Counted from the stretch's first letter, positions 3,284 to 38,222 are shown. The stretch: DNA of 42,890 nt from Psammoneis japonica (GCA_008632985.1 QPGO01000134.1:186001-228890), one strand, 5' to 3'. Notes: generated from the sequence alone by a model not told the origin. A program made the numbers and translations.

Positions 3284-3796
3284 GATTTGGAGTTTTGTTG
3301 TTGTTGTTGTTGGACTTGCTTCGTATGATTTGTGAGATAAAATTGTGAGGAGAAGCGACGAGAAACGTCGCTCGGCGAAGTGCGAAGTCACCTCAGAAGG
3401 CGAAATCCGTATCCACGTAGAAATGACAAATTTCGTACTGAACACTACAAAAAGTTTGCCAGGACGGTTGGACGGACTACGGTGCGCTGATGATCGTTCG
3501 AATTCTTCCGAATTCACTTTTGTTCCTGACTTGGATTTCAATTCTTGGCGCACTCTCTTCGAGGCTTGCTCTTGTTTCCGTCCGAAATCCCTTCAGTTCT
3601 CACGGCAATGTCTACTCACTGAATGTTGTTTTTTTTTGCAGACGAGCGTTGGTAGACTTAGACTCAACCACGGCAATTGCCGCTCCCAACAACAGCACAG
3701 CTTGCCACTCCGGCTCTTCTGAACTCGTTTTTGTTGGGTTGTCGGACCCTCCATGCGTTTGACTGGCTAGATCTTATGAGAATCAGTATGAACTCA

Positions 3797-5239: not shown

Positions 5240-5469
5240 GCACAGCACAAATCAAAATCTACAAAATAGGCTCTCTAAAAAGCGATCTCAATAAGCAAAA
5301 TAAAAGCAGATTCAAGATTTAGGATTTTATTTCGTAAATATATATCTTTCGGATGTTATAGTATTCAAAATCATTTTTCTAGTTCAATTCCTTGCTGCGC
5401 TTCTCTACGTCACCGTTTCCAGTTTTTTCTTCAAGAAGACCGACTATCGACGACATTCTGCTTAAGACC

Positions 5470-6851: not shown

Positions 6852-7227
6852 GTTACCTGGCTTGCATGCAATGGATAGCCAAGCAATGCCGTTCTTCAAG
6901 AGCACCATCAAGAAAAGACGTTCTGGCAAGGTTTGCGGCTAGACTGCGATTTATTCTACGCGAAAAGCTGTAACAGCGAGGTAGTCTCATGTTCTATCCC
7001 CCCTGTCTTGTATCTGTCTAATCTACCTCTCTAGCTAGTGGGTATTATCTCTCCATCTAGGACTAGCTAGAGAGCATGTGCTCCAGGCCAAAAGGTTTCA
7101 GGTTGCTGAGTTTGTGTTTTTTATCCGCACAAAAGAGTTGTGATACGGACGCGCGACAGATCGCAGCGCAGAGACGGTCGGTGATGATAATAGAATACTG
7201 TAGAAGTACTTACTCAAGTTTCGAGAA

Positions 7228-7410
7228 GTGGGAGCAAAAGATGCACAATCCCTTGCTGTTTATCCAGATGTCATGACGTATTCCCAGTTGCACAAGGATC
7301 ATCAGCTTGCAGCTGGGGTGCTACCCGAATTGGTGCGTCTCAGCATTGGGCCGGAGATTGTGGACAATATCATTGACGACTTGGAACAAGCCTTGGCCAA
7401 GGTGATTTAG
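7228..7410 (+). pseudogene. Orphan C-terminal fragment of O-acetylhomoserine sulfhydrylase (MetY/MET17, Cys/Met PLP enzyme family)
   Basis: DAQSLAVYPDVMTYSQL...AAGVLPELVRLSIGPEIVDNIIDDLEQAL matches the family C-terminus (DAKSLxIHPASTTHxQL...LxRLSIGxExxxDIxxDLxQAL). No upstream part is visible. Confidence 0.72.
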
Positions 7411-7463
7411 GAAGTCGTCGCTGCATTTAAATCTCAACATGTCATTTTCTCTACGGAAATATG

Positions 7464-17799: not shown

Positions 17800-20150
17800 G
17801 AAAGTATCATTGAGATATCACGCCGTAAAGTGGGACACCGGCGGCTCGCATCATTGTGCTGCTGCAGTTTGCTGCGTGCAAATTGACTTGGTGAAATTTT
17901 GTGAGGGTTTCGTGTCCCTTGGAAATTGTGCGTGTTGTGTGCGATTGATTATGTGTCTGTGTATGGCACTTGTATGCGTGTCGTGTCCCTCAGGAATTGG
18001 GTGTACTGTCCCTCTGAGTCGGTCTAACACAGAAAATGCGCGAATGAATGAAAGGCAGGCAGGGGGGGGAAACAGTTGCGTTGGGCGGGTGGACAGGCGC
18101 CAACAACCCCATGCTGTTTGTCCGTCATTGCGCACACACGTGAATCTCTCCGAATGAATGAGTTCACTTCAAGTTCATCTTGGCACTCAGTGAGTGCTGT
18201 GCAACATGCCAGTTGAGTGCATGGCCCTTGTTTTGTGGTGTGGGCTCACCTGCAGACATGACTCGAAATCTTGGGTGTCAGCGCACATCACAAGACATTT
18301 TCCAGCATCTGCCAGTTGTTGTCAGCGCCGCGCATGTCAGCACATGCTCCCTCAAGACACAAGGGCCATGACAGACATGTCAAGCAGCAGAAGATGTCTT
18401 GCTGATGGCAGGGTGTGGCTGCAGTGTGTGACAGATTGTGTGAGTCAGCGAGCGTCCATCTTGTGTGGTGTGTGCAACGCGCCGTTGTCATGTGTGGCCA
18501 GCTCTTGCAGGGCCTGCTGCATGGCAGTCCGCCCAGCATTTGGTCTTCTCATGCTCTTGTTTGACAAGTGCCAAAACTGCCCTGTGGTGCACTGGTGGTC
18601 TGTGCATTTAGAGAATTGTCTTGTTTGTCAGCGAGCTGAGCAACAAGGCCCTGTTTTCTGTCCTGGGCACATTGCCACTTGGAAGACTGCACACAGCACC
18701 TCAAATGAGGACAGTTCTCTGCTGAACACTGACTGCGCTGGACTTGCATGTTGAGTGGCTGGCAGAAGCGTGTGCTGGGGTGGTTGGCCAGTTAGAGTGT
18801 CCAATGGCGGCAAAGTTAGTTTCCGTGTGGACGATGTACAGACGCAACGAAGGACAGCCGCTCCGATCCCATGCACCACTTGTCAGACACTGTTGTTTGT
18901 GCTCTGCTTTGATGTCATTTTGTGTCAATTTGTGGAGTGATTGTTGGGTGATCCACTCAGCAACTTTGTCATTTTTCACTGCTGGCACAGGCAGATTTTC
19001 TAAAATGTGGAGTGTGAAGAGGTGCAAATGCACTGCAGACTTGGCTGTTTGCTTGAGTGTTGAAGACAAATGTGTCTGTGTTGAGGATGGATTGACAAGC
19101 AAAGGTCATTTTTTGTGCTGAGAGCTCACATTTTTTTTGTTTTTGAGAAAAAGGGCACACCCCACACAAAGTGCGCAAGGTTTGCCAAAATGAAATTTTG
19201 ACAATGAGCAGAACTTTGTCTGTTCACAAGACATTGTGCACACAAAATGGCAACGACCATGTGCAATGTTCAGCTTGGTGCAAACACGTCTGTGGCGAGT
19301 CAAATGCCAGCCCTTGGCATTTCCTTGGAGATTGTGGCTTGCCAGCCACAAGCAGCAGTGCAATTTTGTAAAAAAGAGCAGATTGTTGAATGTGACAATT
19401 GCACACCAAATCTGACAATTGGAGCTTGAATGTTTGGACCCCACACTTGGAAAGGAGCCCCACCAGCAAGTCATGTTCTTGGTGTGGCAAAAATGTCTGA
19501 GCAATGCAGAGCCATGCATCTCAGTGGCAGAGCCAGCTGCAATTCTCACAAATGAGCACAAACCTCTTTTGTCCCATTGCACTGCAACCACATCCAAGTG
19601 ATTGCCTCAACATTTTGGTGGTTGACAGCAGAGTGCATCATCTTGCAGTTGGATGACCAGAGTGCTCCAGCTGAGTTTGGCAAAAAAAAGCTGACTTGTT
19701 GGCATGGCCCCAAAGTCTTGAGGTTCATGTGAAGTCTCTCAAGACCATGTCCAGCTTCTCAAGATTGTCTTTAAAGGATCCCTTTGTTGTGGCAAGCAAG
19801 TTGCTTGTATCCTGTTCAGGCTCCTGGGCAGAAGACAGGCTCTCAACAATGCTGTCGTCATGTGTTGGCTTCCAGGTCAAGATCACTTTGGGATCAAAAG
19901 AATCCCTTCACAAATGTCACCAAGGTGGTGAGACAAATGATGAAGAATGAAAGTGGAAACGGCACGCCGACGTTTGTTTGCCTTGGAGCTCGCAGCCGCC
20001 CAGTTTTTCCTCCCCTGCTCAAGATTCTTGCAGATTGCAACACACTGCACACACTGCCAAAAGTGCCATTTCATCACACGACCCTGTGCTGAGGTGTTTC
20101 TTACAACTGCTCGAAGCAACAGTCGGACGAGACTGGGATCGTCGTCAACT
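17800..20150. repeat. Degenerate TpA/CpG-depleted repeat relic, unclassified
   Basis: Almost no TA dinucleotides. The six-frame ORFs are Cys/His-rich and Tyr-poor, matching the composition of the repeats at 22.7-38 kb. Confidence 0.6.
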
Positions 20151-20502
20151 TTTTTCGGTTGCTGCGTTCATGGCAAGAACAAGATCGGTTTTTGAATCAA
20201 TCCCGTATGATCACGACTGACACGCATCTTTCGGTCGCACAACTTGGATGACGTCATCTTCGGTATGGTCATTGAGGCATTTGGTTTGTTCGGCGGAGTT
20301 CGTGACCTTCCAAAACCAGACATTCGTACTTTTACATATGCCCTTCACAATATTTTCGATCTTGGGCGTCGTTTGATGAGCTTTCATTGGGTTGTTGCCA
20401 TTGACGTTTCTCCCTTCGCATAATTTGGATGTTCGGCTTTTGGCGTAACATAATCCACTCTCTTGCTGGAACACAGAAGACGAAAGACGATACAGGTAGA
20501 CA

Positions 20503-22361
20503 ATGATGTTGCGATCCCTCTCCACAACGACGACGACACTCTTGGTGGCGCTGCTCTCGGGGTTACACTGTGTCGTTCACCCTGTTCAGGCTCGCATCAT
20601 TCCTCCATCATCAACCACTTGCGCCAGTGACACGGGCGGCAATACCTACCACGTCGGTCCCGGGCAAACCTACGCTACTATTGGGGCCGCTCCTCTGGAT
20701 ACGTTGGAACCCGGTGATTGGGTGTGCATTCACTACAGTGCCACACCGTATGCGGAAAAGTTTGTCTTGAATGTCAACGGCAATGCGACTCATCCCATTG
20801 TCGTGACGGGTGTGGCGTCGGCCGACGACCCCGTCTTGTTGCCAATAATCGATGCGGCGGGCGCCACGACGCCCACCTATCTAAATTATTGGAATGAAGA
20901 TCGATCTTTGATCAAGATTGGGGCGGCGAGTTACCCCACGGGCACGGCCTCGTATATTCGCGTCCAGTACTTGAAACTGCAAAATGCGCATCCGAACTAC
21001 ACGTTTACCGATGACACGGGAGCCGGGGCAAGGTTTATCGCAGCAATGCAGCCTGTGTGCACGTCGAACAGGGCAGTCATATTGAAATTGTGGGGAATGA
21101 AATTACGGCCTGTGGCAATGGGATTTTTATCGGTGGACCCAACGTGTCCGACATTTTGATTGAACGCAATTACATTTACGGCAATGGCATTTCCGGATCC
21201 ATTTATGAACACAACACGTACACGGAAGCGGCGGGCATTACCTATCAGTACAACCGCTTTGGAGAATTGTGCAGCGATTGTTTGGGCAACAACTTGAAGG
21301 ATCGGTCGGCGGGATTGGTTGTGGCATACAACTTTATTCAAGGAGGCAATCGACAATTGGATCTGGTCGACTCGAGCAATTTGGTATCACACCCGGATTA
21401 CGACGAGACGCACGTGTACGGCAACCTCTTGGTCGAATACGACTTGCAAGGCAATCGTCAAATGGTCAACTTTGGAGGAGATTCGGGCAATACGGCCAAT
21501 TATCGATCTACGCTCTACTTTTATCACAATACCGCCTTGTCGACCCGGGCGGGCAAGTCCACCTTGTTAAGATTGGGGGCAAACTCCTTGACGGCATACC
21601 TGTCCAATAATGTCTTGGTGGCCACGGGCGCCGAAAGTTTAGAATTGTTGGCCGATAATGGTCCCGGAACTGTCTACGCAAAGCACAATTTGATTTCCGA
21701 CAATTACGTGCACTATTACTTTGGCTCGACTCCCTCCAATGTGGTGGAATCTGGTACCGTGCTGGAATCCCAAGTGGCTCCCGTGTTTAGCGATGCCAGT
21801 TACGACGCGGAACCGTACAACTTGCAGCTGGCTGGCTCCTTATTGTTTGGCACTGCCTTGGAAGCTGGTTCTCCCGCCGTTACATCGGAATATGTCATGC
21901 ATACAGCCTCTCAGAGTCGTAGCACTCTAGATCTTGGAGCCTACGGTTATGGTACACCTGCGCCCACCATCTCACCGTTTCCATCGAGCGCACCGTCCGA
22001 GTCCAAATCGCCCTCAGTGTCACCGAGTGCCTTTCCCTCTACCTCACCGTCGGTCCTACCTACCAAGGCTCCTACTGCACCAATCAATTGCTCGTTGTTG
22101 GGGGGCAAGGATGCCTGCAATGCCGAGATGGACTGTTTTTGGTGCGACGCCAATGGCGATCCCACCAATTCGGGCAAACCCGGCAATACTTGCTGTAGTA
22201 ACAGCAGTGGACCGACACCAACTCCTCCTACACCGACACCTCCTACACCTACGCTGGAACCTCCCACGTGTCCTGGAACGGGAGAGGGGCGAAATGGATC
22301 CTGTACCGTCGATTCCGATTGTATCAGTTGCAAGTGCAAAAACAATGGACGATGCCAGTAA
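20503..22361 (+). CDS. Secreted right-handed beta-helix (pectin-lyase-like) protein with a Pro/Ser/Thr linker and Cys-rich tail; frameshift near 21025
   Basis: Signal peptide, TYHVGPGQTY, LEPGD, parallel beta-helix repeats (IVGNEITACGNGIFI, ILIERNYIYGNG, NLKDRSAGLVVAYN, LYFYHNT), DLGAYG, PSxSPS repeats. The frames join at a GGGG run. Confidence 0.85.
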
Positions 22362-22664
22362 AAAAAGCCGATTTCGATACCTTTTGGCTACCGAGCAGGT
22401 GGGTAGAAGTACTTGTGTGACACTATTATACATTACTTCGAAATACATAAAACCAAACCAAAATAGCAATGGACTTTGGGAGTCGAACTTGCCGATTACA
22501 CGAACGTTTAAGACAGGTGCAGCCATTAGAGAATCGCTTGCTGACGTGGACTATGCACACAAATGGAAAACGAGTTTTATGTCTAGTAGATCCATGCAAA
22601 AGTGGAGATTCCAATTTTTGTACTCTTTTTAGCAGAGGAAAGCAAGAAGACATAAACAGTTAGA

Positions 22665-22990
22665 TTGCATGTTCTTTTAAAAAATCGTCAGCCGTGCCAT
22701 CTGGCGCTTGCATGCGACAATTGCAGGGGCCAAAACAAGAACAGAATGGTCACAAGGTCGATTCTGTGGCTTGTTGAGACAAAAAGATTCAAGAAAGTGC
22801 CTCTTGTGTGCCTTGCAGCTGGTCACTTGAAGAACCCTTGTGACGGGATGTTCAATCTGCTGATAAAGGACCACACAAACCTCAATCTTTTCACAGATGA
22901 TGGCCTCATTGGCACTTTGAATGGACACAAGGAGACCCTGGGAAGTTGTTTCAGTGGACGAAAAAAAGTCTGTTGAAACAGACTGTGGGT
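22665..22990 (+). mobile_element. DDE transposase fragment, Sola-like
   Basis: LALACDNCRGQNKN...LWLV...VCLAAGHLKNPCDGMF matches the DNCxGQNKN...xLxxGHTxNxxDxxF pattern. Confidence 0.7.
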
Positions 22991-24259
22991 TGGAACAGCA
23001 AGAAGGCACGTTGAAACTGACACCTTGTTGGTGCCGCTGTCACTCATTGCCCTGTGCACACACACTCATGTCAGTCAAACAGTGATTGAAAAACAATGCT
23101 GGGTGATGATGAAGCAGGCAGAGCAGCAAATGCATGGGAGAACAAACCATGTTCACATTGTGGCAAGATGAGGAGGGCTGCCTCCTTGTCATTGGGGTTG
23201 AAAAACAAAGGGAGAGAGGGGGCTCCATCTTGCCATCACCTCTCTGTCATTCAAACTGTGCAGAATTGGTTGATTTGGAAGACCACTCTTGGCATCTGTC
23301 AAGTGGACCCCTTTGCCATTTCAAACAACTGGAGATTGTTGGGTTAGATTGACACTTGTCAACGTGTCTTGCTTCCAGCAAACTTGGAATGAGACTGCAT
23401 TGTGCAAATTCCATGGCTCCAATGTTTTGTGATGCTTGTTTCCAAAACTCCAAGCACTGGTTGACTGCTTGTCAATGGACTCTCAACTGACCATGGGCTG
23501 AATGCTGCAGACCACAGCCAAGGCACAAGGCTTGGCATCATTTCTTTGTTGAGCTCCATGGAAGTCACAACTGGTTGCACTTTGTCAATCATGTGATCAG
23601 AGCTGGTTTTGTGCGAAGCAGCATCGGCACTGCAGCATTGTTGGGCACATTTTCACAGCCATGGATTCAACCCACTTCTTCAACCAGGTCGATTTCTTGA
23701 GTCAAATCTTTCTGCCAAGTCAGCGGCATGCAGGTGATTGACTTGTTGTCTTGCAACTCAATTGTCAGCCCCTGCTCCTCTGGAGTTTTTGGAATGACAG
23801 TGGTGGGGATCTCAATTCCAAGGATCTGTTCCAGCTTGCTTGGTTGCTGCAGTGCCATTGGATCATGTTTTCAGGTTTCTGTCCTGCGTCAACAATGCCA
23901 CCCAACAACTCACCACCCCCAGTCTCAAGGATGATTTCACATCATCGCCAACTTGCCTGTTTCATTTGAGTCAAGTCACAACATTTCATTTGAAGCAAAA
24001 AGAGCCAGGACTGTGCAGATTTAGACTGTGAGCAGTCTTTTCCATGGACAGCTGGTTGAAGTGTGTGGCCACTTTGACTGGAATGTCTGTTGTTGAATCA
24101 GAAATCTCAGAGCTGGTGCTGCCCATTGCACCGCCAACAGCAACTGCATCTTTGGCATCTGCAATGATGCACATTTCCAGCTTCAAGGCATGGCTTTTGT
24201 GAACAATCACTTCTGTTGTTTTGCCCTTTTTGGGTTCACAAACAATGATTTTGCCATCT

Positions 24260-24649
24260 GACGCGTTCCAGGTCTAGGTGGGACCTCGTACTACTGAACT
24301 GTGACATCGATAGTTTTTTGAATCACGTCGTATGTCGCGCACGTAGATTTCTACGTGATTTTTTTGACATTTTGTGTCATTTTACGGTACACTTACTGAG
24401 CGATCCGTCCAACAACTTTTGACATTTTTTGTTACAGCGCGATTCTATAATGTCTTAAGAATCGCGTAGGGCAGGTGCATTTGCAAAAACGTCGAGTGGT
24501 AAGAGGCATAATTGTACCACAAACTTGGCCGTTTATTTGATGTTGAAGATAAATATATCCATTAATTAAATTCTCGTAGTACGGAGCTCGCACGTAGAAT
24601 TCTACGGGCCCAATGTCACACGGAGTCCCACCTAGGGCTGGAACGCGTC
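24260..24649. mobile_element. MITE (390 bp), young copy with TSD ATCT
   Basis: TIR GACGCGTTCCAG..CTAGGTGGGAC at both ends. ATCT at 24256-24259 and 24650-24653. Non-coding, AT-rich interior. Confidence 0.93.
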
Positions 24650-26633
24650 ATCTTTCACTTTGACAAAATCAAAGGCGTGAAGCGGTTGTCTGCATTTGAG
24701 CATCACGCAGTTGGTTGCATCAACATCATTGTTGATGGAAGCAATTCCTGCAGCTGCCAAGCAACCCACCAGTCATGACAGACTGCTCACAATTTTTGCA
24801 CCTTGAGTCAATTGGGTTGTGCATTGACGCTGCTTTAAAAATGCAAACTTGCCTTTCCAGCCTTGAGAGCTCCTCAAGAAGCTCTTTGCCATTTGCCGTG
24901 TCAGTCAATGGGGCACAATGTGTGGTGCATTGCATTTCCCCTCCAACCCAATCAGATGAAACAGAGGGAAGAGCACAAGCAAAGAACGGAGCAACAACAC
25001 AAGTTAAACAGAGCAAAGCATGCAGTGGCAAACAACAAATGAGTTGCTCACACCCAAAACTCATGAGGTGCAACTCTGCACATTTCAACAGCAATCCACA
25101 AAGAGAAAAATGATGCCACAAGAGCTGGCATGTGACATGTTTGAGAGTCTCCTCTTGACCACAGCAATGACGCCACTTCAGGTTTGACAGATTGCAGTCA
25201 ACGCAAACAAGGCCAATGTTTTGGGTGGGCAGCAGGCAGCCACAAGGCTGAAAAAGGATGCAGCAGGCACTGCGTGAAAAAGCAAGAATGACATTTGTTT
25301 TTCCAAAGCCTCCCTTCCCATCCTTGGCCACTTTCCTTGGCTGTTGTTGCATCCTTCCATCTCCACCAGCCATGACACACAAGCGCTCAAAATGTGGGGC
25401 AGCCAGGACTCACAAATTGACAAAGCACTTTCTCCTTTTCTGGAGCATGCCAGAGCAGAAGACCAGTGCAAGTGATTCTGCTGCCTGGGTGACTGCAAGA
25501 GACTGCCCAACATGGTGTGCAAAAGAGGCAGCAAAAATCCTGGGCTGCTCCCCATGCATGGTCTGCAGCTGACAAAGGACCCAGCTTTTCTTTTCAGGCT
25601 TTGTCCTGGCTGTTTTCCTCTCATGCACAACTCCAACAATGGACAGCCACGTTGCTGCAGTCGGCCAATGTGGCTCAATTGGTGTTGCCTTGTTTGGCTG
25701 TGTTTTTGCACGACCACAAATTTGTTCCTCATTGTGGCTGTGGCAAACAAAAAATTGCCCAGACAAATCATTTGGTTCCCCTTCACCATGTGCAGGCAGA
25801 AATGGCACTTTCACCTCTGATGTCCAAAACATTTCTCCAGGCTCACGTGTTCTCACCTGGTGCAAACCACTCTACAAGATCCTTCAACTTTGAATCTCTG
25901 TCAAGCTTTTCATCTCAAGTCTGGCCACAGCCACTTGCATTGCTGCCATTGCTGGCCAGCATTTCCCTCCAGTGCTTTTGCAGAATTGAGCCTGGCTCTG
26001 AGTCGAGACACTGCACTGTTGAAGAAACAATTTGAGTTGTGCACTGGAACACTTGGATTTGTTTTGACCAGCCCCACTCTCAAAGTGCCCTGAAGTCTTG
26101 ACACATCATTTGTTGCTCCTGTCTGGCTTCTGCCAAACTGATCAGACATTGTGCTTTTGCCATGATCAAGGAATCATTGGCGCACTCACCCTCTTGAACA
26201 TTCAGCTGGTGTCTCTTGTTGCATTTTTGCAGCCAATGTGTCAACAGATCATTGGGGCCCATCTTGAGAAGACTGTTGTCTTCAAATGCATGGACATCTT
26301 CCTTGGCAACAAGGTCATGGACGGCTGCGCTGCAGCCAAGCAAAGAGTGCTGATGGCACCCCAGATGCCCAGTCTGGAGTGAAGGCATCACACCAGCGGG
26401 GTTCACAAAGTTGTCAGCAGGGCAGAGTGGATCCTCAACTTGAAGACATCAAAAACATTGGTGGGCACAGCAGCGCTGAGAGCACAACAGGCCCTGCAGG
26501 CCATGGAAATCTTGCCATGACTCTCATCAGCAAAACACAAGGGTCAGCTGATCAAAAATGCATGGGGCCTGGGTGGGTGGGCCAGAGCCATCATTTCATT
26601 GTCAATCTCCTGGCACACCAACTTGTGGCGGTG

Positions 26634-27071
26634 TGCAACACACAGCCACTGACAAGAGCCAATGCATCACGGCGACGTGTTGCAGCCTTTAAATGTCACA
26701 AAGGGCGTGACAAAATAACCTTTTGTCTGCATGCATGCTGCGTTGTGAATCCATGGCGGAGTGGTTCATCGTGTGACCATTAGGCAGGAGGCCAGGGGTT
26801 CGAAACCCTGAGTGGGAGTTGTCTGCAGCAACGTTGATCACTGTCGAACGCGTAAAACTCTGTGCAGTTCTGCATGTTCCTTCGCACGTGCCCACACTGT
26901 TCCGCCAAAACCGTGCAGTGTCAGCACACGTGAGCGTAGGTCGCGTGACACATGGGGAGGAGTGCAACACACAGCTGCTGATGAGAGCCAATGCATCACG
27001 GCGACGTGTTACAGCCTTTAAATGTCACAAAGGGCGTGACAAAATAACCTTTTGTCTGCATGCATGCTGCA
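26634..27071 (+). mobile_element. TRIM-like mini LTR retroelement (438 bp) with TSD GGTG
   Basis: 109-bp direct repeats at 26634-26742 and 26963-27071 (TG...CA). PPT GGGGAGGAG at 26954-26962. GGTG at 26630-26633 and 27072-27075. Interrupts a region that is continuous in copies A and B. Confidence 0.88.
26754..26807 (+). promoter_or_regulatory. tRNA-type Pol III internal promoter (A and B boxes) inside the TRIM
   Basis: A box TGGCGGAGTGG at 26754-26764; B box GGTTCGAAACC at 26797-26807 within the stem CAGGG...CCCTG. Confidence 0.7.
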
Positions 27072-30000
27072 GGTGCTTGAGAAATTTTGCCAACAACACC
27101 TCATCTTTGACAAAAATGACATGTGGCTCACACCAACAAGGCCAGTGCCACAAGAAATGCAACTTTTGAGTTCATCAACAGCACAGACCCTGTCCCTGCT
27201 TTCCTGCCTGCCCCTTGTTCTGGTGCGCAGGTGGTGGAAAAGATTTGAGCTGCACCCTTTGCGCTCCCAAATGTGAGAAAGCCAAGTGTGCCTCCAAACA
27301 CATGCTCTTGTCCCGCGACAGAATCAAGTGTCTCTCATTTGCTCAACACGCCATTGTGGCCAGGCCTCCATGAGCCAGCTGGACAAACAAACAGCTTGAC
27401 ATTGTTTTGCTGGCATTTTGCTGTCCTCACAATGGGCTGCAAGTTGGATGAGATGCACCCGGAGCTGCCACTCATGGTTGTGTGGTGGTTGTTTGCAACT
27501 TGATGTTCAAACATTGCAGACTCTTGTGTGCTCAACAAGCCATGACAGAGCTGCGCGCCTGTCTTGACCAACTGGAGTGGCGCCTGTCTCTTGAAATCTT
27601 GGGGTGAAGTTGGCTGTCAGCTGCCATGGCATTGATGAATGGATCCACAGAATTGTGGACAAGCTCCTTCTCAACCTTGTTGTTGGCAAGATCAAGAGAC
27701 ACAAGAGAACCCAAAACTGCTCCACTGCAATCTCAGACAAATCAACCTGACACTTTTGGCAATTGACAAAATCAGTGCTTGTGCCAACAGCCTGCACTTG
27801 CTCCAGTTCCAAGTCCACCGCAGCACATGTCACACCCCATGGAGTGCCGTCTTTTGCGCCAGAGATGCAAGATGTCTTCAATGACACCCGCATGGATCTT
27901 CAAAATCCAAGGAATCTTTCAAGATTTTGAGCACCTTTTCAGCACACAGCTCAGCAATCTTCCGTGCCATTGGGCTGCAACCAATCTTCGTGACAAACAG
28001 CCAGCTGCACTTCCCCCCTTCTGACTGGTGGGCGTGTCATCAGCAAAGGACTCTTGCCCAGTTCCAGAAGCTCTTTTTCTTCCTTGGTGCAAAGTGGCTG
28101 TTTGCCATGAGCTCATTGTGGTTGTTGCCCTTGGTTGATGCCAAGGCTGAAACATTGGCAGCAGGTGATTTTTTTTTGGTCAGTGTTGGTGGCTGAAGCA
28201 CCAGCAGTGGGCAAGTGGGTGTCAGCAGCTGCAGTGTTGGCAGCAGGTGAGTGGCGGGTGTCAGTCAAAAATTGAAAGGGGGTGTCAACAGCTCCAGCAG
28301 GTGGTGGTGATTGGAAGAAAGCAACAATTGACAGTGTGGGTTGCTTGGTCAATTTAGCCACCTTGTCATTCTTGAGGGTCAGTGTGCCAGCCACCACATT
28401 CAGTTTTGGCAGCTCAGTGGTTGGTGCCTTGGTGGTTGTCCTCTTGAAGTTGCTTGTGACAATGGCTGCTGCATTTGGCCTTGGAAGAGGGGATGAAAAG
28501 CATGGCCAGCAGCTTTTTATGGAGAGCAGCATTTGATGATGCAAAAGATTTTGCAGGCAAGCCCTGCTCAGCTCCTGTCTTGGCAAATGACTGGAAAAGC
28601 ATTGGCAACAAAAGAACAGTGCAGTGTGAACATGACAATGTGATTGAATGCTTGCCATGTCACAAATGACAGTGGTTGGTGTGCAAGAGCCAATGCCAAG
28701 CAAAGAGCTGTGCACCTCATGCTCATCTCTTGTCTCACTTGTGAAACAAACAAACAAACAAACAAACAACAGCAGAAATTCAGGGAAGATCTTGCATCAA
28801 TTCATTGCTCATCCAGAGAAAAAGCTGCGGCGGGTGTGACAAGAGGAGTCACTTGATGCCCAATGCACCTCATGTGCTGTTGGAGTTGACTGTTGTGTTC
28901 AAACAATTGGCGTGACAACAAGCCACATGCAAGAAGTGAGAGTCATGCTCAAAGCAGAAACAACACAAGCAGCAAAAAAACAAAGTGACTTGCTGCAACT
29001 CTTGCCAGTTTGGTGGATCTTTTTCCAGTCATCAACCCTGCCTGCTCAGTCACGGATGGTCTGGCAACATCACACTCATCTCATCACTCACAACCCACAA
29101 CATGGTGTCACCTTGTTGTTTGCATTGTGGTGGCAGAATGCACTGCAAAGCTCAAACAAACAAAGCAAGTGCAAAAATCAGCAACATCAGTGCATGAGCT
29201 GGACAGTGTTTGCCCCTCACAAGCAGGAGAAGCTCATGTTCCAGGGCATGAAGGACCCTGCTGCAGAGGTGTGCATTGAGGCAGTGCAACTTGAGGTGCT
29301 TTTGAAATGCCTGTGACTCACTGACACCTCGTCATCACCACAAAACATTGACCTGATGATGACAGCCCCAGATTGACAAGGCACAAGTTGCTCCAGGTCT
29401 CCTCTGCAGATCAGAAAGGCAACAAGAAAAGAGGACACTGCCTTGATGGAAAAACAGTCAAGTGCAGACAGTGTTTCAGCCAGAGCCGCATTCTTGGAGG
29501 ACAGACTTGGACCACCATCATTGGCTGTCTGCAAAAGAAAGACAGGTGCACTTGTCAGATGCACAAAATTTGTTCGTTGTCCTCGTGATTCATTTTGCAC
29601 ATTGCGCACTTGCCGCGCTCAAAAAACAAATGGTTTGACAGCAATGAAATGTCAGTCAAAGCAAGAAGCAGTGCATCTCAAAAAAAAAACAATTTGAAGT
29701 GCTGCTGCACCTTCACCCAGCAATGCTGGTGCCAGCTGACCCACACCTCCGGTGCACCCTGCAAGGAGTGCGGCAGAAGCGGGCTTGATTGGCCTGAATC
29801 GGCATCTCCCCTGAGGAGATGCCCGGCGGGAACAGCTGGTGCAGAGAGTGCAACAACACTTGGAGTTTGCTGTGGCATTGCTGGCAACATGCACACTGGT
29901 CATGCCATTGCCACAGAGGACAGTTGCAGCTGGGAAAAATTCACACGGGAGCCACAAAGGGAGCCAAAAGGAAGTCAAAGGAAGAGTGCCAAACCACTGG

Positions 30001-31169
30001 CTGTTGCTCATCAAGCAGTGAAACCTCACTCAAACCTCAAAGAAATGAAGCAATGGAAAGATTGCTGCATGCAGCAGAAAGCTTGATTTGCTGGCAAGCA
30101 AGGGGGAGTTTGTCCAGGGCTGGGTGACAAGAAATGGGAGTGCTTGATGATTCGACCAGTCCGTCATTGGGAAAAATGTTTTTCACGTGCAGAAACCATG
30201 CCTGATCTTGCGCAGAAATGCCGACACACACAGCAAATGGATGGCAGTCACTTGTTGCCAAAGGGAGGCTCATGCTCACACTCGTCAGCATCACAACAGA
30301 AGAAGCAATTTCGCCACAAGCAGTGAAGGACTTGGCTGGCCGATGGGAGCAAAGAAAGTCATTGGAGACAGAAGAGTGACGTGTTCCAGCCGCACGTGAC
30401 CCAAATCATGCACAAAAACAACATTTGCGCAATTTTTGCACGGTCTCTGACTTGCAAACGGTTTCTCACCACCAAAAGAATGGATTTGTTCAAATTTGAA
30501 TGTTTTGCAACACTGACAAGACTCGTGTGAGTGTTGCAACATCATTGTCATTGTGCTGTCTGTGTTTTTCATTGCGACAAACAAATCGCAACACAACAGA
30601 TGATTTTCAGCAAAATCATTGCCGTCATTTGGATGTCACCCAAACACATCTTTCTACGATGAGGCTTGGTGGGTTTTCTACCTGCAAAAAAGCTCAGCAC
30701 ACAATGCACTGACGCATGATCAGCGTTGAGTCTACAGAGAAAGTTCATGACACATGTCCCATGAGGACTTAACACCCCACAAAAAACTGTTCAAATGTTC
30801 ATGCTCTGGACTCCTGTAAAAGCCAATCCACTCAAGCATTTTGTGTGAAAATGCTCAACGCACTAAAAGATGCACAATTTACATTCAAAATCGATTGTCG
30901 TTTTGTGTGTCACCTGGGACTGGAACACATCAAGTGTGGGCACAAGAAGCTTAGAAACTTGACAAAACATTCATTGGTGGGGTTTGACGAAGCGCAAAGA
31001 ATTTGTGCTGAAATCCGTGCAGACAATTTCTTGGCTCTGCAGAAAATGACAAAAAGAATCAACACGCACATGACCCATGAGGAGTTGACGCCAATGCATG
31101 CACTCAATGTCAAAAAAAAAAGCACAAAAGTCCAAACGAATGTCATCCCACATTGTTGCTCCACACCCG

Positions 31170-34100
31170 TGGTCCATTTGTTGCTGAGCTGACAAAGGAT
31201 CCAGCCTTTCTTTTCAGGCTTTGCAATGACATTCTTCACCTCATGTGCTGCTCCGACAATGGACACGCCATTGCAGTCAGCCCACGTTGCTTGGTTGGTG
31301 TTGCCTCATCTGACTGTTTTTTTGCGCGCCCATGAATGGGTTCCTTGGTGTGGCCATGGCAAATGAAAACATTGCCCGGAAACACGATGCTGGGGCTGCT
31401 TGTCAGCAAATCATTTGGCTCCCCTTTGGCAGGTGCAGGTGGAAATGGCACTTTCACCTCTCAGGTCCAAAACATTCCTCCAGGCTTGCCATCCTCACCT
31501 GGCACAAATCGCTCTGCAAGATCCTTCAACTTTGTGTCTCTGTCAATCTTTTTGTCTGCAGTCTGGCCACTGCCATTTACATTGCCACAATTTTTGGCCA
31601 TTTCCTTCCAGTGTTTTTAGCAGAATTGCACCCAGCTCTGAGTTGCAGAAAACGTGGTGCTGAAGAAACAATTTGAGTCACAAGCTTGAACACTTGGAAT
31701 TGTCTTGACCAACCCTGCTCTCAAGAAGTGCAACCAGACACAGTGCCTTTGCCATGATCAAGGCATCATTCGTGCGCTTGCCCGCTTGAACTTCTGGCGG
31801 GTGTCTCTGGTTGCATTTTTGCATCCGACACGTCAACGGGTTGTTTGGGTCCATCTTGGGGAGATTGTTGTCCTTCAATGCGCAGATGTTTTCCTTGGTG
31901 ACATGGTCACGGAAGACTGCGCTGCAAGTGCAAGGGTGCTGATGGCATCCCAGATGCCCAGTCTGGAATGAAAGCATTGAGTTGATCGGGTTCACAAAGT
32001 CACTGGCAGGGCAGAGCTGATCCTTGTCTTGAAGACGTCAAAAAACATTGGTGAGCACAGCGGCACTGAGAGCACAACGGGCCCTGCAGGCCATGGGAAT
32101 CTTGCTGCGACTGTCGCCAGCAAAACACAAGGGTCAGTTGATCAAGAATGCGCAGGGCCTGGATGGATGGACCAGAGCCATCATTTCATTCTCAACCTCC
32201 CGGCACACCAATTTGTGGCCACGTTTGATGAACTTTGCCAACAACACCTTATCCTTGACACAAACAATGTGGTTTGCATCAACAACGCTGATGCCACAAA
32301 CATGGCTTTCGACCTTGTCAACAGCCAAATCCATTTCTACGTCCCCACCTGCCCGCTGTTCTGGTGAACAGGCGGCAGAAAAGATTTGATTCACACCCTT
32401 TGCATTCTCAAATGCAGGAAAGCCAAGTGTGTCACTGAACACATGCTCTTGTCCCATGACACAATTGGTTGTCTCAAGTTTGCTTGACACGCCATTGTGG
32501 CCAGGCTTCCACAAACCAATTGCATGAACAAACACCTTGGCATTGTTGGATTTGGCAAACCTTGCAAGAGGTTGTAAATCAGAAAAGATGCGTTCGGAGC
32601 TGCCACTCGCCATTGTGTGACAGTTGTTTGCAACTTGATGACCAAACATCACAAACTCTTGTGTGCTTGACAAGCCGCAGCAGAGCTGAACGCCTGTCTA
32701 GACCAACTGGAGCCTCTTGAAACCAAGGACGTCACCTCCACGATCGCGAATCTGCTGATGAAACAAATGTTGAAAAGGATGAAGAAGACTGTCTGTTGCC
32801 ATGGCCTTGATGAATGGATTCACCGCATTGCGGACAAGCTCCTTCTCAACCTCATCATCAATGAGATCAAGAGAAACAAGAACCCGAAACTGTTCCTCTG
32901 CAATCTCGGATGAATCAACCCAACACTTTCGGCGATTGACAAAATTGGTGCTCACACCAACACTCTTCACTTGCTCCAGTTCCAAATCCATTGTGGCATG
33001 CGTCCCACCCCATGCAGTGACTTTTTTGCAGACGCAAGACATTTTGAATGACATCCGTGTGGATCTTCAAACTCCCAGGCATTCTTCAAGATTTTGAATG
33101 CCTTTTCAGCATGAGGCTTGGCAATCTTCCGTGCCGTTGGGTTGCCACCAATCTTCATGACAAACAACCAATTGTGCTTCTCCTTCTGACTGTCAGACAT
33201 GTCGTCAGCAAAGGGCTCTTGTCCCTGCAGCTTCTTCTCCAGTTCCAAAAGCTCTTTTTCTTCCTTGGTGTAAAATGGCTGTTTGCCATCATGATCGTCA
33301 TCCTTGGTTGAGGTGAGCAAGTCGGCATCGGCAGCAACTAAAGAGTCAGCAACAGGCGAGTCGGCATTGGTGGCTGCAATGTTGGCAGCACCGGCAGGCG
33401 AGTCGGTGTCGGTGGCTGCGACGTTGGCACTGGGCATGTGTGCATCAACAGCTCTGGCAGGCGGCGGTGATTGGAAGAAAGAAGCAATGGGCAGTGTGGT
33501 TTGCTTGGTCAATTTGGCCACCTTGGAGCGCTTGACGGTTGGTGTTTCTGCAGCTTTTTGCTTCACTGGGAGCGCAATGGCAGGAGTCCTGATGGCAGTC
33601 CTGAACTTGCTTGTGACGCCAGCTGCTGCATTGGCAACGGGACTAAAAAAGGCACCAACAGTCCTTTGTCTTTTGTCCAGGGGCTTGCGCAGCTTGGGAG
33701 GCATGGTGATGTGACACATTTGGCTGCGGTGCGAATCCTTCTACATCACAAGAGAAAACGACATGACAAACAATGAGAATGACAAATGATTGGAAATGCA
33801 TGAGAGACAAAAGAACAACTCAGTGTGAATGACAACATGATTGAGCACTCACCGTGTCAAATGGCAACGATTGGTGTGTGGCCTCCAATGCCGAGCTGCA
33901 CGAAGAGCTTTGCATCTCGCACTTGTTTCCCGTCACTTGTGAGATGGCAAAACAAACAACAAGCAACAACCAATGTGAGACTCACATGTCAATGGCAGAA
34001 TGAGGAAATGTAACAAGGGAAAGAAGGAACACCACACCAAAAGCAAGTGCAACAACAAGAGCAGAGTGATGTCTCGTTTTGGTTTGTGTTTGATGAGCGA

Positions 34101-35225
34101 AGCGAAACGCGCCGAAAAAAAGCCACTCTGGATTGAACACATGCATTTTCTGGATGTGTCACACGCATCTTTCATCTCTCAGTTGTGAGAGTCAATTGTG
34201 AGTCGGAGGTGCGGAGACACTGTCTCTAGAGCAGAGAGGCGGGCGCACCTCTCTGTGGCACTGACACTGACACTCAATGCTTGCCAGCGAGCACAATCGA
34301 GCATTCATTAATTGCATTGACTGCTGTGGCTCTCCCACTCTCCACTGCAGCACCAGTGGCCAGGCTTTGGGCCCCAATGACAGAGAATCCAAAGCACAGT
34401 GAGACAAGCGTGGCAATCAAGAAATCAAAATGATGCCGAGAGAGAAAGCATCTTTCTTGACGCATTCCAGCCCCAGGTGGGAGCTCGCAGTGCTGACGTG
34501 TGACACAAATGAATTTTGTCATCCGTCGTGTGTTTCGCACGTAGATTTCTGCATGTGACATTTAAAAAAAATTGTCCAGACTCGCTGTTTTGTGAAGCCC
34601 CAGACGTTTTATGTGGCAAGTTCACAGAAACAACAATGTGCCAGTTGCATTCTTCAATGTCTGAAGAATGTAACTGGCCAAGTAAAAAATGATGTGCTTC
34701 AATCACAGGCGAGTTTGTGCGTTCGCAAAATTGCCTCATTTTCTGTTGGTGATCATTGACATTTTAATTGCCGCATGATTTTGCTGTGGAGCTCGCAGGC
34801 AGAAGTCTACGGGCCCAATGTCACACGGATTCCCACCTGCGTCTGGAACGCGTCTCTTGCAGATGGCAATCAACTTGCCAACAATGCAGAGACATCCATG
34901 ATTTGCAGCAGACGGGGACATCACTTGGTGTGAATGCTGTGCGTTCTGGTTGACGAACATGACTGTGCTTCGAATGAAATGAGTGATGGCTTCGTCTTGG
35001 GCCGGCACGCTGCGAGGTGCGTCTGCAGTTTCACATTGTCTCCCCTCCACATGTTGATTTCATCCAATCTGACAATGTTGATAAAAACAGAGTGGGCAGA
35101 GTGTGAGACAAGCAGCTGTTGAAATGACGATGGTGGCAGAAACTCATGAAACACGATGTGTCCAAAAAATCCTGCCTTCCTTGCTTGCTTCCCTTGGTTC
35201 TCTGTGTCCTTCCGCCATCCCCTGA
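31170..35225 (-). mobile_element. Large unclassified repeat, copy B (TpA-depleted)
   Basis: Colinear with 38300-42890 apart from deletions. ORF remnant MPPKLRKPLDKRQRTVGAFF starts at ~33704. Confidence 0.9.
34459..34854. mobile_element. MITE (396 bp), older relative of 24260-24649, with TSD TCTT
   Basis: Termini GACGCATTCCAGCCCCAGGTGGGA and TCCCACCTGCGTCTGGAACGCGTC. TCTT at 34455-34458 and 34855-34858. The empty site with a single TCTT is at 41611-41614. Confidence 0.93.
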
Positions 35226-35274
35226 CCACGTGCGCGTGCAGCACGCACAACGCACGCACAATGGGATGCATGCG

Positions 35275-36800
35275 TGTGGTGTTTCTGCAGCCTTTCGCTT
35301 CACTGGGAGCGCAATGGCAGGAGTCCTGGCAGCAGTCCTGAACTTGCTTGTGACGCCAGCTGCTGCATTGGCATTGGCAAGGGGACTGAAAAAGGCACCA
35401 ATGGTCCTTTGTCCTTCATCCAGGGGCTTGCGCAGCTTGGGAGGCATGGTGATGCGATGTGTTTGGCTGCGGTGCGAATCCGTCGGCATCGCCACAGCAA
35501 ACAACGGATTGTTAGAAATGAATCAGAAACAAACAAGAGTGCAGTGTGAACAATGGTGTGACCATGCACTCACCGTGCCAAATGACAGCAACAGGTGTGC
35601 TGCCACCAATGCCGAGTTGAGTGTAGCGCGCTCGTTGCATTTCAATGCGATCGTTTCCAACACGCTGAATGATGTCGACCCAACAACCAATCAGCACCAA
35701 ACAAAACAGTCAATGAGCAACACATTGTTCCACAAAGAGAAAATCATTGAATGGCAGTGTTGTCGATTCGACACTCACCTGGGGAAAATGTTGTTGGTGT
35801 GACACTGTCACGACGAGTCAATTGACGTTGGACGCACCTCGTGTGCCGATGGAGTCGTCGACTCTTGCGTTCAAACAATCGGCACGACGACAAACCAAAC
35901 ATGACAAGTGAGAATCACATTCAAAGTGTGAACCACACAAGACATTGACATGAATGGAGATGAATGCTTGCCTTTCAAAGAGCAGTCAAAAAACAAAGCC
36001 GCTCGATGCGACAGTTGCCTTCTTTTTGTCGATTCTGAGATTGATGACCGCGGAATTCCGGCGCGCCAATTTCGTGCCAGCATCAATCCCGCCTGATCAG
36101 TCACGGACAGTCTGTCCTCGCACTGCAGGTTTTTTGTCGGCATTCTCATCTTGTCACTCTTGAACTCGTCAAACACAACATGATGTTACATTGTTGTTTG
36201 CGCTGCACAAGATGGCCGAACGCGACAAACAAAGTGTGCAAAAAATCAGCAACGCCCGTGCATTAGCCGGACAGTGTCCAACTCTCTAAAACTCTGCCGC
36301 AGAAGCAGTGCATGAAGAGGCATGTTTTGAGGCAGTGGCCCTGCGTCTTGAGGTGGGTGCTTTTGAAGTTTCTGCAACTTGCTGACACTCGTCACCACAA
36401 AGTGTTGACCCATGACGACAACCCTGGATTGGCAAGGTGCGAGTCGTTTGGCGGCCTTTCTCTGCAGATCCGATGGCACAGAAAGACACAGAAATTAAGA
36501 CACCGCTCTGTCAGTGCCGTTCATCGACATTGTCACACAATGCAGCTTTTCTCATCATTCTTGGAGGACAGACTTGGGCTTGGACCATCATCAACCCGTG
36601 CAGAACTTCAGTCAGAGGGGCGTCATTGGAGGACATTCTTGGACAAGTGTCATTGATTGTCTGCAAAAGAAAGAAAGAGCACTTGTTAGATGCACAAAAT
36701 TTGTTCGTCGTCCTCGTGATTCATCACATGTTGCACAATGCATGCTCACCACATTCACACAAAAAACGGTTCGGCAAATGACAAAATGTCAATCAAAGCA
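35275..36800 (-). mobile_element. Large unclassified repeat, copy D (ORF 5' end plus upstream region)
   Basis: MPPKLRKPLDEGQRTIGAFF at ~35447, truncated after KRKAAETP. The upstream region matches 28600-29700 and 41770-41950. Confidence 0.85.
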
Positions 36801-36915
36801 GGCAGCACGTCTCAAAGCATGTCAGCACGCAAACAACAACATGCACACAAAATACAAACAAAGCAAATGGTGCAAGATGCCCATGACAAACAGCAGGATG
36901 TCCCCACTCCCAGCG

Positions 36916-37554
36916 CAAACTGTGCAGTGGTTCGCCGCATGAAATCACGAATGCGCGCGATTCCTGCCCCAAACCATCAAGTGGTTCGCGGCAAGCAAAA
37001 AACGAACTGACAGACGATGGGCAAAAGTGTAAAAGATGATGAGACATCTGCAACAACATTGCATCAGTCGACACAGCAACGTCTGTTTGACAATGTGTGT
37101 GCTTTGTTTTGGCGGTTTACTGTGTTCTTAAACTTCTCCATGCTGCTGCCGTCTTGTTCATCGTGAGCCTCATTTTTCTGGTTCAGTTTTGCACTCGACC
37201 CTCTGGCGCAAATTGCCACGCATGTTTCTACGCTCGTCCTCCCGAACCACCTCATGGTTCGCCAATTCTACGGGGCTCCCGGCACTTGTCCACGCAGCGA
37301 ACCGCTCAATGGTTTGATGTTTTTTTCTGGTGCTGCCCTGCGGTTTTTTCTGCGGGGTGAGAAAATCACCGCCAATGACCATGACGGTGATTTGACGGCG
37401 ACCGAGCTCCACACACGAGTGGCGGCTGACAACATGATGCATTGACAACAATGGCTTTTTGCCTCTGTTGAAAGGTTGCATCTGTGCAGGCACTCCTTTG
37501 TTGTGTCAGTTGCGAGTTTTATCCTGCGCAAGTTGCGAACCACTGAGTGGTTCG
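36916..37554. repeat. Five dispersed copies of the palindrome CGAACCA-N5-TGGTTCG
   Basis: 36916-36934, 36970-36988, 37243-37261, 37298-37316 and 37536-37554; deviations are transitions only. Confidence 0.85.
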
Positions 37555-38079
37555 ATTTTTTGCCCGAGTGGGGATGTCATGTGGCGTCGTTGCCTCACCG
37601 TTTTTCGAGCGTTTCGTTTGCGATGCATGCCGGCACTTCTGCTGCAAAATGCCAAACAGGAGATAAATCAACATTGCACAGAGAGAGCAGACAGCAGCTC
37701 AAAAAAATCATCACTGCACTTGCAACTTGCAAAGTGTGTCGCATCATGTGGATTCTGCCAAATGTGTGTCGAGTTCAGAATGAAGAACGCAATGAACGAA
37801 ATGAGCGCAATGAATGCAACAATGAATCGTGTCGAGACTCGTCCATGCACATGATGTTCATTTTGTGTTTGATGTGTTGAGGTTGCGTTGGCCAATTGAC
37901 CAAGGGAAAGCAAGGAAGGAAGGAGTTTCTTGGATCGCGCTCGCTCGCTCAAGTGGATTTTGAATCGCCAATGCACGAACCACGCACGTGCGATGGGATC
38001 GTGCGTGCACACAAAAATTTTAAAAGCACAACCGCCAAAAAATGATCGCAGCGAGTGCAATTGAAATTGTTTTTACGTG

Positions 38080-38222
38080 CTGTGCTCTCCAGCTCTCTAG
38101 AGTAGAGAGAACAGCCAGTCCACCAGAGGAATGCTGCTGTCTGCTTTTCTAAATTGTTTCTGCTGTGCTCCAGCTCTAGCAGAGAGAACAGCCAGTCTAG
38201 AGGAATGCTGCTGTCTGCTTTT
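38080..38222. repeat. Imperfect tandem duplication (~70-80 bp) at the truncated end of copy A
   Basis: CTCCAGCTCT...AGAGAGAACAGCCAGTC...AGAGGAATGCTGCTGTCTGCTTTT occurs twice. Confidence 0.8.

Follow-up and report, generated by a model that had tools for sequence, protein, structure and literature searches.

What kind of process could remove nearly every TA dinucleotide from blocks of diatom DNA while sparing the genes beside them? The question is raised by a 42,890-nt window of Psammoneis japonica (QPGO01000134.1:186001-228890, one strand), which is the whole stretch of DNA analysed here. An initial sequence-only reading had reported about 17 kb of TA-poor repeats in this window (17.8-20.1 and 22.7-38.1 kb), next to genes with normal TA, and had attributed them to a repeat-targeted mutation of TpA to TpG or CpA. 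We computed the observed/expected ratios (o/e) of TA, CpG, and TG/CA in 1-kb steps, with borders located in 250-bp steps. Per kb, TA o/e was 0.42-0.81 over the genes of the first 17 kb vs 0.00-0.15 at 18-20 and 23-38 kb, where TG/CA o/e reached 1.6-1.9 and CpG o/e ranged from 0.09 to 0.98. The borders of the depletion are sharp at 250-bp resolution (18.0, 20.25, 22.75, and ~38.0 kb), and the depleted DNA is interrupted by islands that are spared either fully, as for a miniature inverted-repeat transposable element (MITE) at 24.26-24.65 kb, or in part, at 26.75-27.1, 30.5-31.0, and 34.46-34.85 kb. The TA-poor repeats are therefore real and required only small trimming: the strictly depleted domains cover 15.9 kb within 18.0-20.25 and 22.75-38.0 kb and contain 53 TA (3.3/kb, o/e 0.051), with a TG+CA o/e of 1.75 and a CpG o/e of 0.44, the latter in line with the CpG erosion that had also been described. 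Normal DNA (23.4 kb) holds 924 TA (39.5/kb, o/e 0.56) at a CpG o/e of 0.95, and the affected domains are depleted in TA by a factor of ~12. The long open reading frames (ORFs) of the flanking genes, 12.0 kb in total, have the normal TA content expected of them (403 TA, o/e 0.54; CpG o/e 0.94; TG+CA o/e 1.22). Unique DNA between long ORFs (8.4 kb), in which the same depletion would have argued against a targeted process, shows none (365 TA, o/e 0.61, vs 0.051 in depleted DNA; CpG o/e 0.96; TG+CA o/e 1.18). The process is thus bounded to regions, with ordinary composition around them.

What the lost dinucleotides became can be followed in the right half of the window, where one unit is present locally as three direct copies, with further partial copies at 35.3-36.8 kb. 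Copy A (38227..42890, minus strand) is the least altered and has ordinary TA (o/e 0.43-0.81). Relative to it, copy B (31145..35218, minus strand) is 84% identical in nucleotides and keeps 8 of 148 TA and 89 of 206 CpG, and copy C (25491..28520, minus strand), the oldest, is 69-75% identical and keeps none of 105 TA and 9 of 146 CpG. When sequences are recoded as purines and pyrimidines, however, identity between A and B rises to 97.2% over 2.5 kb, and that between A and C to 92-93%, so that nearly all divergence between the copies consists of transitions. This gain from 84% to 97% also explains why hypermutated relics escape similarity searches. Sites at which A carries TA became CA in 66 cases and TG in 51 in copy B, and CA in 46 and TG in 33 in copy C. 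Single transitions account for 117 of the 140 changed TA sites from A to B and for 79 of 105 from A to C, while transversions stand at background (22 sites with any transversion for B at an expected fraction of 0.116; 25 for C at 0.175). The example first given for the pair, CCATTATAGCATACGTC at 40169 against CCATTGTGGCATGCGTC at 32988, is exact, and the peptide changes KPYAE to KPHAE and HGYHS to HGCHS occur as described.

The transitions are highly specific to one dinucleotide. From A to B, A>G changes affect 120 of 289 adenines in TpA (0.415) vs 33/583 in ApA, 57/587 in CpA, and 37/540 in GpA, which is the enrichment at TpA that a dedicated process predicts. Because one hit removes the site for the other strand, the ceiling for TpA is 0.5, and the observed value lies close to it. 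From the 5% survival of TA, we infer a TpA rate at least 20-fold above that of background transitions, a lower bound because sites are saturated. This spectrum bears directly on one candidate put forward by the sequence-only reading, Pol-eta-like error-prone repair in methylated chromatin, considered here for WA motifs and for silent chromatin as well. Pol eta does make A>G errors at WA in immunoglobulin hypermutation, TA being the hottest motif, and its spectrum also includes many A>T and A>C changes. Here, ApA is at background (33/583 vs 120/289 for TpA), and so are transversions at TA sites (22/148 vs 0.116 expected), which argues against a process of the Pol-eta type. In addition, TA loss is near complete where CpG is intact, indicating that methylation-coupled repair is not required. 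Overall, this candidate fits poorly, and we consider it quite improbable.

In which direction the changes ran is not given by a two-copy comparison alone, and sites with TA in A and CA or TG in B would equally suit the opposite history, in which C>T mutation at CpA/TpG, akin to fungal repeat-induced point mutation (RIP), gave copy A its TA, and the ancestral state is that of the copies without TA. Polarity was tested in four ways. First, 72 sites carry TA in A and TG or CA in both B and C, and at 25 of these 72 sites B and C are resolved differently (overall, B and C differ by 55+50 TG/CA swaps); such discordant sites need one change each from an ancestral TA, vs double changes under the reverse model. 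Second, the 15 Tyr codons of copy A read His or Cys at 14 positions in B and 13 in C, while the proteins of the family retain Tyr at residue 248 (48/53) and residue 461 (44/60). Third, the abundant, high-depth version of the MITE bears TA, and a relic of it at 18.9 kb has TG/CA. Finally, the TA level of copy A is ordinary for the genome rather than raised (o/e 0.43-0.81), and it is the other copies that fall far under the genome norm. For these reasons TA is the ancestral state. The polarity from TA to TG/CA is confirmed with outgroup proteins, and the reversed history, already ruled out by the B/C discordance, the Tyr retention of the family, and the depth of the MITE, retains a negligible probability.

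A different concern is whether the bases themselves are real and the TA loss native to this DNA. Base-callers can misread modified bases, some viruses avoid TA, and the depletion could in principle be an artefact of sequencing or assembly that arises from modified bases, or else reflect the native composition of TA-avoiding foreign DNA. Reads of one sample (runs X1-X3) were available as Logan contigs. Six X1 contigs (771, 767, 788, 1047, 1326, and 973 bases; depth 30.5-39.5, ~32 overall) reproduce depleted stretches with 0 differences (22834-23604, 25138-25904, 25875-26662, 27043-28089, 28060-29385, and 30904-31876), a match which mainly rules out long-read base-calling error, since X1 may be the sample from which the window itself was assembled. 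Moreover, a miscall restricted to one strand would not be expected to yield a two-strand consensus in which both TA have disappeared and TG/CA alone remain.

The same signature is found outside of the window, among relatives of the protein encoded by the 941-codon ORF of copy A. Within the 150 relatives listed, a few lack Tyr altogether (P0169, P0234, and P0250). In P0169, Cys occupies 3 of 4 columns in which the family has Tyr and in which four control proteins keep it. The DNA encoding P0169 occurs in two metagenome records from two sources, L001 (2381 bases) and L002 (1170 bases), which are 99.9% identical and represent one locus, without nucleotide similarity to the window. These records have a TA o/e of 0.02 and 0.04, a CpG o/e of 0.78 and 0.90, and a TG o/e of 1.72 and 1.62, respectively, and their TA total is three, in the contexts CTAA, CTAA, and TTAG, i.e., those that are resistant in the window. 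Five ORF relatives (P0234, P0240, P0243, P0207, and P0250) contain 0-0.8% Tyr vs the ~3% typical of the family, and such low-Tyr relatives may, like P0169, have been predicted from TA-depleted DNA elsewhere. As for a native foreign composition, sister copies and outgroups indicate that TA was formerly present and then lost. With exact X1 contigs and metagenome records bearing the same signature, the base-calling artefact that had initially been feared is very unlikely, and we give artefact and foreign composition together only a very slight chance. Conversely, we hold with high confidence that a genuine, locally targeted TpA process acts on this diatom DNA.

How this process reads its substrate can be gathered from strand outcomes and sequence context. 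TG and CA products are about equally frequent (51 vs 66 from A to B; 33 vs 46 from A to C), and they do not form strand runs (runs test z of -1.37 and 0.79). Strand-coordinated clusters of the kind left by processive deaminases were not seen either, although this says little given the saturation. The base 3' of the adenine matters: A>G frequencies are 0.53 for TAC, 0.44 for TAT, 0.41 for TAG, and 0.22 for TAA. Likewise, in competition between the strands at a TA site, a strand prevails in 62 of 94 cases if its 3' base is C, 48 of 86 if T, 31 of 74 if G, and 18 of 64 if A. Surviving TA are enriched in TTAA and CTAA/TTAG (23/53 vs 90/924 in normal DNA, Fisher p 1e-9), and none survive at ATAT or ATAG/CTAT, contexts that number 77 and 89 in normal DNA. 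Where neither strand bears a 3' pyrimidine, the survival of TA is 0.265; with one such strand it is 0.067 and with two 0.026, a series close to that predicted if each strand is acted upon independently. Judged from these sequence contexts, the specificity looks like that of an enzyme which reads a single strand as T-A-pyrimidine (T-A-Y).

A preference for T before the altered adenine is reminiscent of RNA editing. Adenosine-to-inosine (A-to-I) mRNA editing in the sexual stage of fungi involves TAD2/TAD3, and ADARs are metazoan enzymes. In both ADAR hyper-editing of double-stranded RNA (dsRNA) from repeats and fungal mRNA editing, the edited A is subsequently read as G, and U/T is strongly preferred at the position preceding it. 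One could thus propose that an ADAR- or ADAT-like activity edits UA in transcripts or dsRNA of retroelements, which then enter the genome by reverse transcription, and the preference of RNA editing for U has also been argued in a recent preprint (Mettrop et al. 2026, bioRxiv 10.64898/2026.01.13.699255). However, unlike these RNA-level systems, the changes here are fixed in DNA, fall equally on both strands without strand clustering, and favour a 3' pyrimidine instead of G, with TAC and TAT above TAG and without elevation of ApA. They fill one contiguous, sharp-bordered domain which covers the relic of a DNA transposon, a pseudogene, and local tandem copies, and copy A carries an in-place gradient. 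No reverse transcriptase domain was detected among the 79 ORFs scanned. Editing of the ADAR type does not account for hits on both strands, for the inclusion of DNA-element relics, or for a 3' preference other than its own, and entry through edited RNA seems to us very improbable.

CpG is lost from the same domains, raising the question of whether one process could explain both losses. Decay of CpG by 5-methylcytosine deamination in methylated transposons is known for diatom transposable elements. The CpG to TpG/CpA component observed here resembles it, and is graded by the age of the copies (43% of CpG kept in B, 6% in C). From A to B, C>T changes affect 96 of 406 CpG vs 47/587 CpA, 20/384 CpC, and 36/457 CpT. 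We also observed that C>T at CpG was highest after T (TCG 43/128, ACG 25/113, CCG 16/84, GCG 12/81 from A to B), a mild 5'-T effect shared with the TpA process. Yet 5-methylcytosine deamination leaves TpA alone, and the two signatures are uncoupled in the window: TA o/e has dropped to 0.11 at 37-38 kb, where CpG o/e stands at 0.98, while at 28-29 kb both are about gone, and copy B retains 5% of TA alongside its 43% of CpG. TA loss and CpG loss are therefore separate processes, of which the TpA process is the faster or operates in bursts. This supports the central proposal of the sequence-only reading, namely that a second process besides CpG decay converts TpA to TpG/CpA on both strands and spares nearby unique DNA.

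What the process targets is less straightforward. All depleted DNA derives from repeats or duplications, and the sparing of genes and unique spacers extends right up to the sharp borders, which speaks for repeat targeting; the data do not demonstrate it, however, and a high-depth MITE remains intact. This young MITE (24259..24650) is complete, with 392 bp, 31-nt terminal inverted repeats, normal TA and CpG, and no hypermutation. Its word depth in X1 is 58,699-68,377 vs ~32-58 for unique DNA, roughly two thousand times the single-copy depth. Across its family (~392-396 bp, 24-31-nt terminal inverted repeats, TGACGCGTTCCAG...CTAGGTGGGAC), X1 word depth is 44,000-68,000, which suggests copies in the order of a thousand or more. 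A second MITE with termini of the same family (34459..34854) is partly hypermutated, several of its terminal TA being now CA or TG, and a MITE relic (18916-19079) carries TG/CA, having been detected only by purine/pyrimidine recoding and then aligned. We considered the second and the young MITE as a clean descendant-ancestor pair and rejected this, as their homology is limited to the termini. The hit sequences further include copies of a putative selfish ORF resembling GIY-YIG nucleases and a DUF7869 relic, as well as a phenylalanyl-tRNA synthetase beta subunit (PheRS beta) pseudogene. A spared MITE and a mutated pseudogene mean that neither "repeats" nor "foreign DNA" describes the target cleanly. 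Further points against a simple homology trigger are the only partial mutation of the second MITE, and the near single-copy X1 depth at which much of the depleted DNA now stands.

Copy A provides an additional perspective on targeting. It is partly affected at both ends, at sites mutated independently of copy B, and positions with independent changes in A and B are concentrated at 38.25-39.0 kb (14) and 41.5-42.25 kb (13), vs 0-2 per 250 bp in the interval between. Between 38.25 and 41 kb of copy A, away from the border of the depleted domain, the TA count per 250 bp climbs from 1 to 19. This gradient and the clustered independent hits suggest either a spreading domain, such as silent chromatin, or repeated partial episodes. 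A target defined domain by domain through silent chromatin would fit the sequence data as well as a homology trigger does, and the spared island suggests that short or recent insertions escape.

Taken together, the explanation that we favour, with somewhat better than balanced confidence, is a localised mutation of TpA in gene-free domains of dead repeats, for which enzymatic adenine deamination would be the likeliest chemistry. The targets are copies of the GIY-YIG-like ORF, MITE relics, the DUF7869 relic, and the duplicated PheRS beta pseudogene. A:T is changed to G:C only at TpA, on each strand independently and preferentially at T-A-pyrimidine, until TA is nearly gone. Adenine in the DNA would be enzymatically deaminated to hypoxanthine, which the following round of replication would read as G. 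The activity recruited to silenced chromatin would belong to a polynucleotide deaminase, either TadA/ADAT2-like or from elsewhere in the deaminase superfamily. A slower decay of CpG to TpG/CpA, the expected trace of 5-methylcytosine deamination, is superimposed. The signature itself is established by the data, with its polarity, context, strand symmetry, locality, and presence in real DNA; a deaminase, targeting through chromatin, and a role in defence are what we infer from it, and we advance adenine deamination in DNA tentatively, at slightly under an even chance.

Several observations weigh against this explanation or parts of it. A very high-copy MITE inside the domain is unmutated and a host-type PheRS beta pseudogene is mutated; X1 may share its origin with the assembly; and L001 and L002 are environmental metagenome DNA. 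With respect to the enzyme, A34 is followed by G, A, or C, not by U, in the natural substrates of ADAT2/3, and the preference for TAT is thus not simply tRNA-like. As for the chemistry, the sequence data fit a modification of the paired T that mispairs with G equally well as a deamination of A: TpA being self-complementary, A>G on one strand and T>C on the other are indistinguishable. Hence, a TET/JBP-like enzyme might instead oxidise T at TpA to 5-hydroxymethyluracil or 5-formyluracil, which would mispair with G and yield T>C. Such chemistry has precedents: in dinoflagellate DNA, TpA and TpC are the preferred sites of 5-hydroxymethyluracil, and 5-formyluracil induces A:T>G:C mutations. We know of no such thymine modification or enzyme in diatoms, for which no search was made, and the near absence of transversions fits clean deamination at least as well. 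We regard an attack on thymine as unlikely, though as the most credible of the alternatives to adenine deamination.

Whether such a process has a counterpart elsewhere can be considered first against RIP, in which Neurospora and other fungi mutate C>T at CpA, creating TpA and lowering G+C; it is triggered by duplications above a length threshold and mutates both copies. The process described here resembles RIP as a local, saturating, transition-only, and dinucleotide-specific mutation of non-genic repeats, leaving relics barely recognised by similarity searches. Unlike in RIP, TpA is destroyed, G:C is gained, and G+C is not lowered; one family copy (A) is largely spared and hit only at its ends, and the high-copy 392-bp MITE is untouched. 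It is thus not RIP, since the direction is opposite.

A much closer counterpart exists in the chlorarachniophyte Bigelowiella natans. The sequence-only reading had known of no description of a comparable system, but this is no longer true: TpA-only hypermutation of the A>G/T>C type has been reported in the text of the preprint cited above (10.64898/2026.01.13.699255). In mutation-accumulation lines, 231 of 302 nuclear point mutations fell in integrated giant-virus and virophage regions, and almost all of these were A>G/T>C, all at TpA. This occurred in some lines only, at ~6e-7 per site per generation, about 1000-fold above the genome, and the genome had 124 clusters of TpA-poor, CpA+TpG-rich windows in which transposon-type domains were over-represented. 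An adenine deaminase resembling ADAT2 is proposed by the authors, as a conditional suggestion there as well. Neither diatoms nor trinucleotide context is mentioned in the main text of that preprint (10.64898/2026.01.13.699255), our full-text literature search returned no report of TpA hypermutation in diatoms, and a Phaeodactylum mutation-accumulation paper (PMC6604790) mentions no hotspot in its available text.

The likeness extends to A>G/T>C changes at TpA only, TpG and CpA products, confined regions, and a TpA-poor, CpA+TpG-rich long-term trace. As far as sequence signatures can tell, the process in the window is of the same kind as the B. natans TpA hypermutation, here in its long-term, saturated end state. 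The two cases also differ. The host is a diatom, i.e., a stramenopile, rather than a rhizarian, and the loss is near-saturated, with a TA o/e of 0.05 vs a Rho of 0.45 given in the preprint text for the nucleocytoplasmic large DNA virus (NCLDV) region. The targets are dead repeats and a host-type pseudogene without viral hallmark, with CpG decay superimposed, and a T-A-pyrimidine preference is measurable. New aspects of the present case are the diatom lineage, the saturation, the T-A-Y preference, the independence from CpG decay, and the non-viral targets, including a host-type pseudogene.

The nature of the repeat unit itself was addressed through the 941-codon open frame of copy A (38097..40922, minus strand), which has decayed counterparts at 31.1-34.5 and 25.5-28.5 kb. 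The frame is one member of an unnamed, multi-copy family; 1.84 billion representative proteins include 164 relatives at E<=0.001, of which the best shares 36% identity. Neither Pfam nor PHROG gave a match, the structural model of the frame found no match at E<=0.001 in a Foldseek search of the PDB, and a wider structure search gave only middling Z scores. A word-index homologue search returned none for P0001 and only itself for P0123, and searches for relatives of the ORF gave none for P0001 in metagenome contigs and none for P0001 and P0122 in viral contigs. The family profile has weak matches to UvrC (1yd6, E 0.17) and T4 endonuclease II (2wsh, E 0.26). I-TevI (1ln0) aligns to residues 244-365 of the ORF model (Z 4.5; root-mean-square deviation 2.7; 69 residues; mean predicted local distance difference test score, pLDDT, 75.5), and 9 of the 10 Atlas structure rows of the homologue P0124 are GIY-YIG clusters, all at low TM. 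These three weak lines suggest that the protein probably contains an N-terminal GIY-YIG nuclease domain at about residues 244-365. The remainder is modelled as a confidently folded 700-residue body without clear structural match. The ORF would then be that of a selfish element, and its family is possibly a new selfish element of diatoms.

The rest of the window places these elements in context. The first TA-depleted domain (18001..20250) has 12 TA in 2.25 kb and includes the old hypermutated MITE fragment at 18916-19079. It is separated from the second depleted domain by a spared single-copy gene island (20251..22750, plus strand) with normal TA and CpG, an X1 word depth of 47-59, and a beta-helix ORF at 21015-22361. 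Over 20324-22439 of this island, X1 contigs differ at 9/652 and 12/843 positions (~1.4%) and X2 contigs match nearly exactly, a pattern that resembles heterozygosity between two haplotypes in a diploid. In the second depleted domain, the left part (22751..24258) comprises the DUF7869 relic ORF (22656-22976, plus strand, E 8e-11), perhaps of a transposon protein, at the left edge of the domain, and the 3' part of the PheRS beta pseudogene on the minus strand. This bacterial-type, hypermutated, and frameshifted pseudogene (23658..24823, minus strand) retains, when read through with stops as X, recognizable B3_4 (E 1.5e-10 and 5.6e-11) and B5 (E 5.8e-08) domains and a match to PDB 4p71 (E 4e-05), and is interrupted by the young MITE within its B3_4 domain. 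Its Arg to His and Arg to Cys replacements fit CpG decay. The main part of the second domain (24651..38000) holds copies C and B and the partial copies, with a CpG o/e from 0.09 at 28-29 kb to 0.98 at 37-38 kb.

The flanking genes are eukaryotic and intron-poor, and encode an SDR protein, a GH29 fucosidase, FtsH, a sulfotransferase, and an ankyrin protein. Among the proteins listed for the FtsH frame, the best named relatives come from raphid pennate diatoms (87% identity in Seminavis robusta, followed by Cylindrotheca, Fistulifera, Epithemia, and Mayamaea at 84-87%), with none above 89%; this indicates a pennate diatom, in our reading a raphid one, distinct from the species so named. An Rfam search of 17-42.9 kb found no family, and Pfam searches of the 79 ORFs of the region returned DUF7869, B3_4, one weak match at chance level, and nothing more. 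Short direct or tandem duplications are present at 26621-26741/26950-27070 (121 bp, 92.6% identity), 38064-38150/38151-38224 (87 bp), and 17356-17442/17462-17551 (~90 bp), the first pair bracketing a segment with a word depth of ~55,000. X1 word depth is also raised in some TA-depleted stretches (2,764-8,165 at 29806-31139 and 143-636 at 35142-37799), indicating that some repeats occur as numerous TA-free copies of >=90% identity. These may have been copied after hypermutation, or may represent TA-less elements that are still multiplying.

To our knowledge, before 2026 no natural system was known for the targeted mutation of genomic DNA at adenines, and the sole account to date is the preprint on a single rhizarian alga. 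It may well be, though we put it forward with slightly less confidence than the chemistry itself, that diatoms and chlorarachniophytes share an adenine-directed counterpart of RIP, in which a T-A-pyrimidine DNA adenine deaminase is recruited to silenced selfish DNA until every TpA is erased. If so, all Tyr codons and the TAA and TAG stop codons of targeted selfish DNA would be destroyed, short elements, and those already devoid of TA, could escape, and the CTAA/TTAA sites that persist would represent the fingerprint of the enzyme. Enzymatic A-to-I editing of genomic DNA would then constitute a widespread arm of genome defence in protists of the SAR group (stramenopiles, alveolates, and rhizarians). 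The signature provides a genome-wide marker by which hypermutated DNA could be recognised in any assembly (TA o/e below ~0.1, TG/CA above 1.7, survivors at CTAA/TTAA). Diatoms with genetic tools offer a place to identify the enzyme, and a natural DNA adenine deaminase would be of interest for base editing. The occurrence of the same signature in a diatom suggests either an ancient origin or a repeated emergence of the process in major marine primary producers, and a defence-like mutator may be widespread in marine protists.

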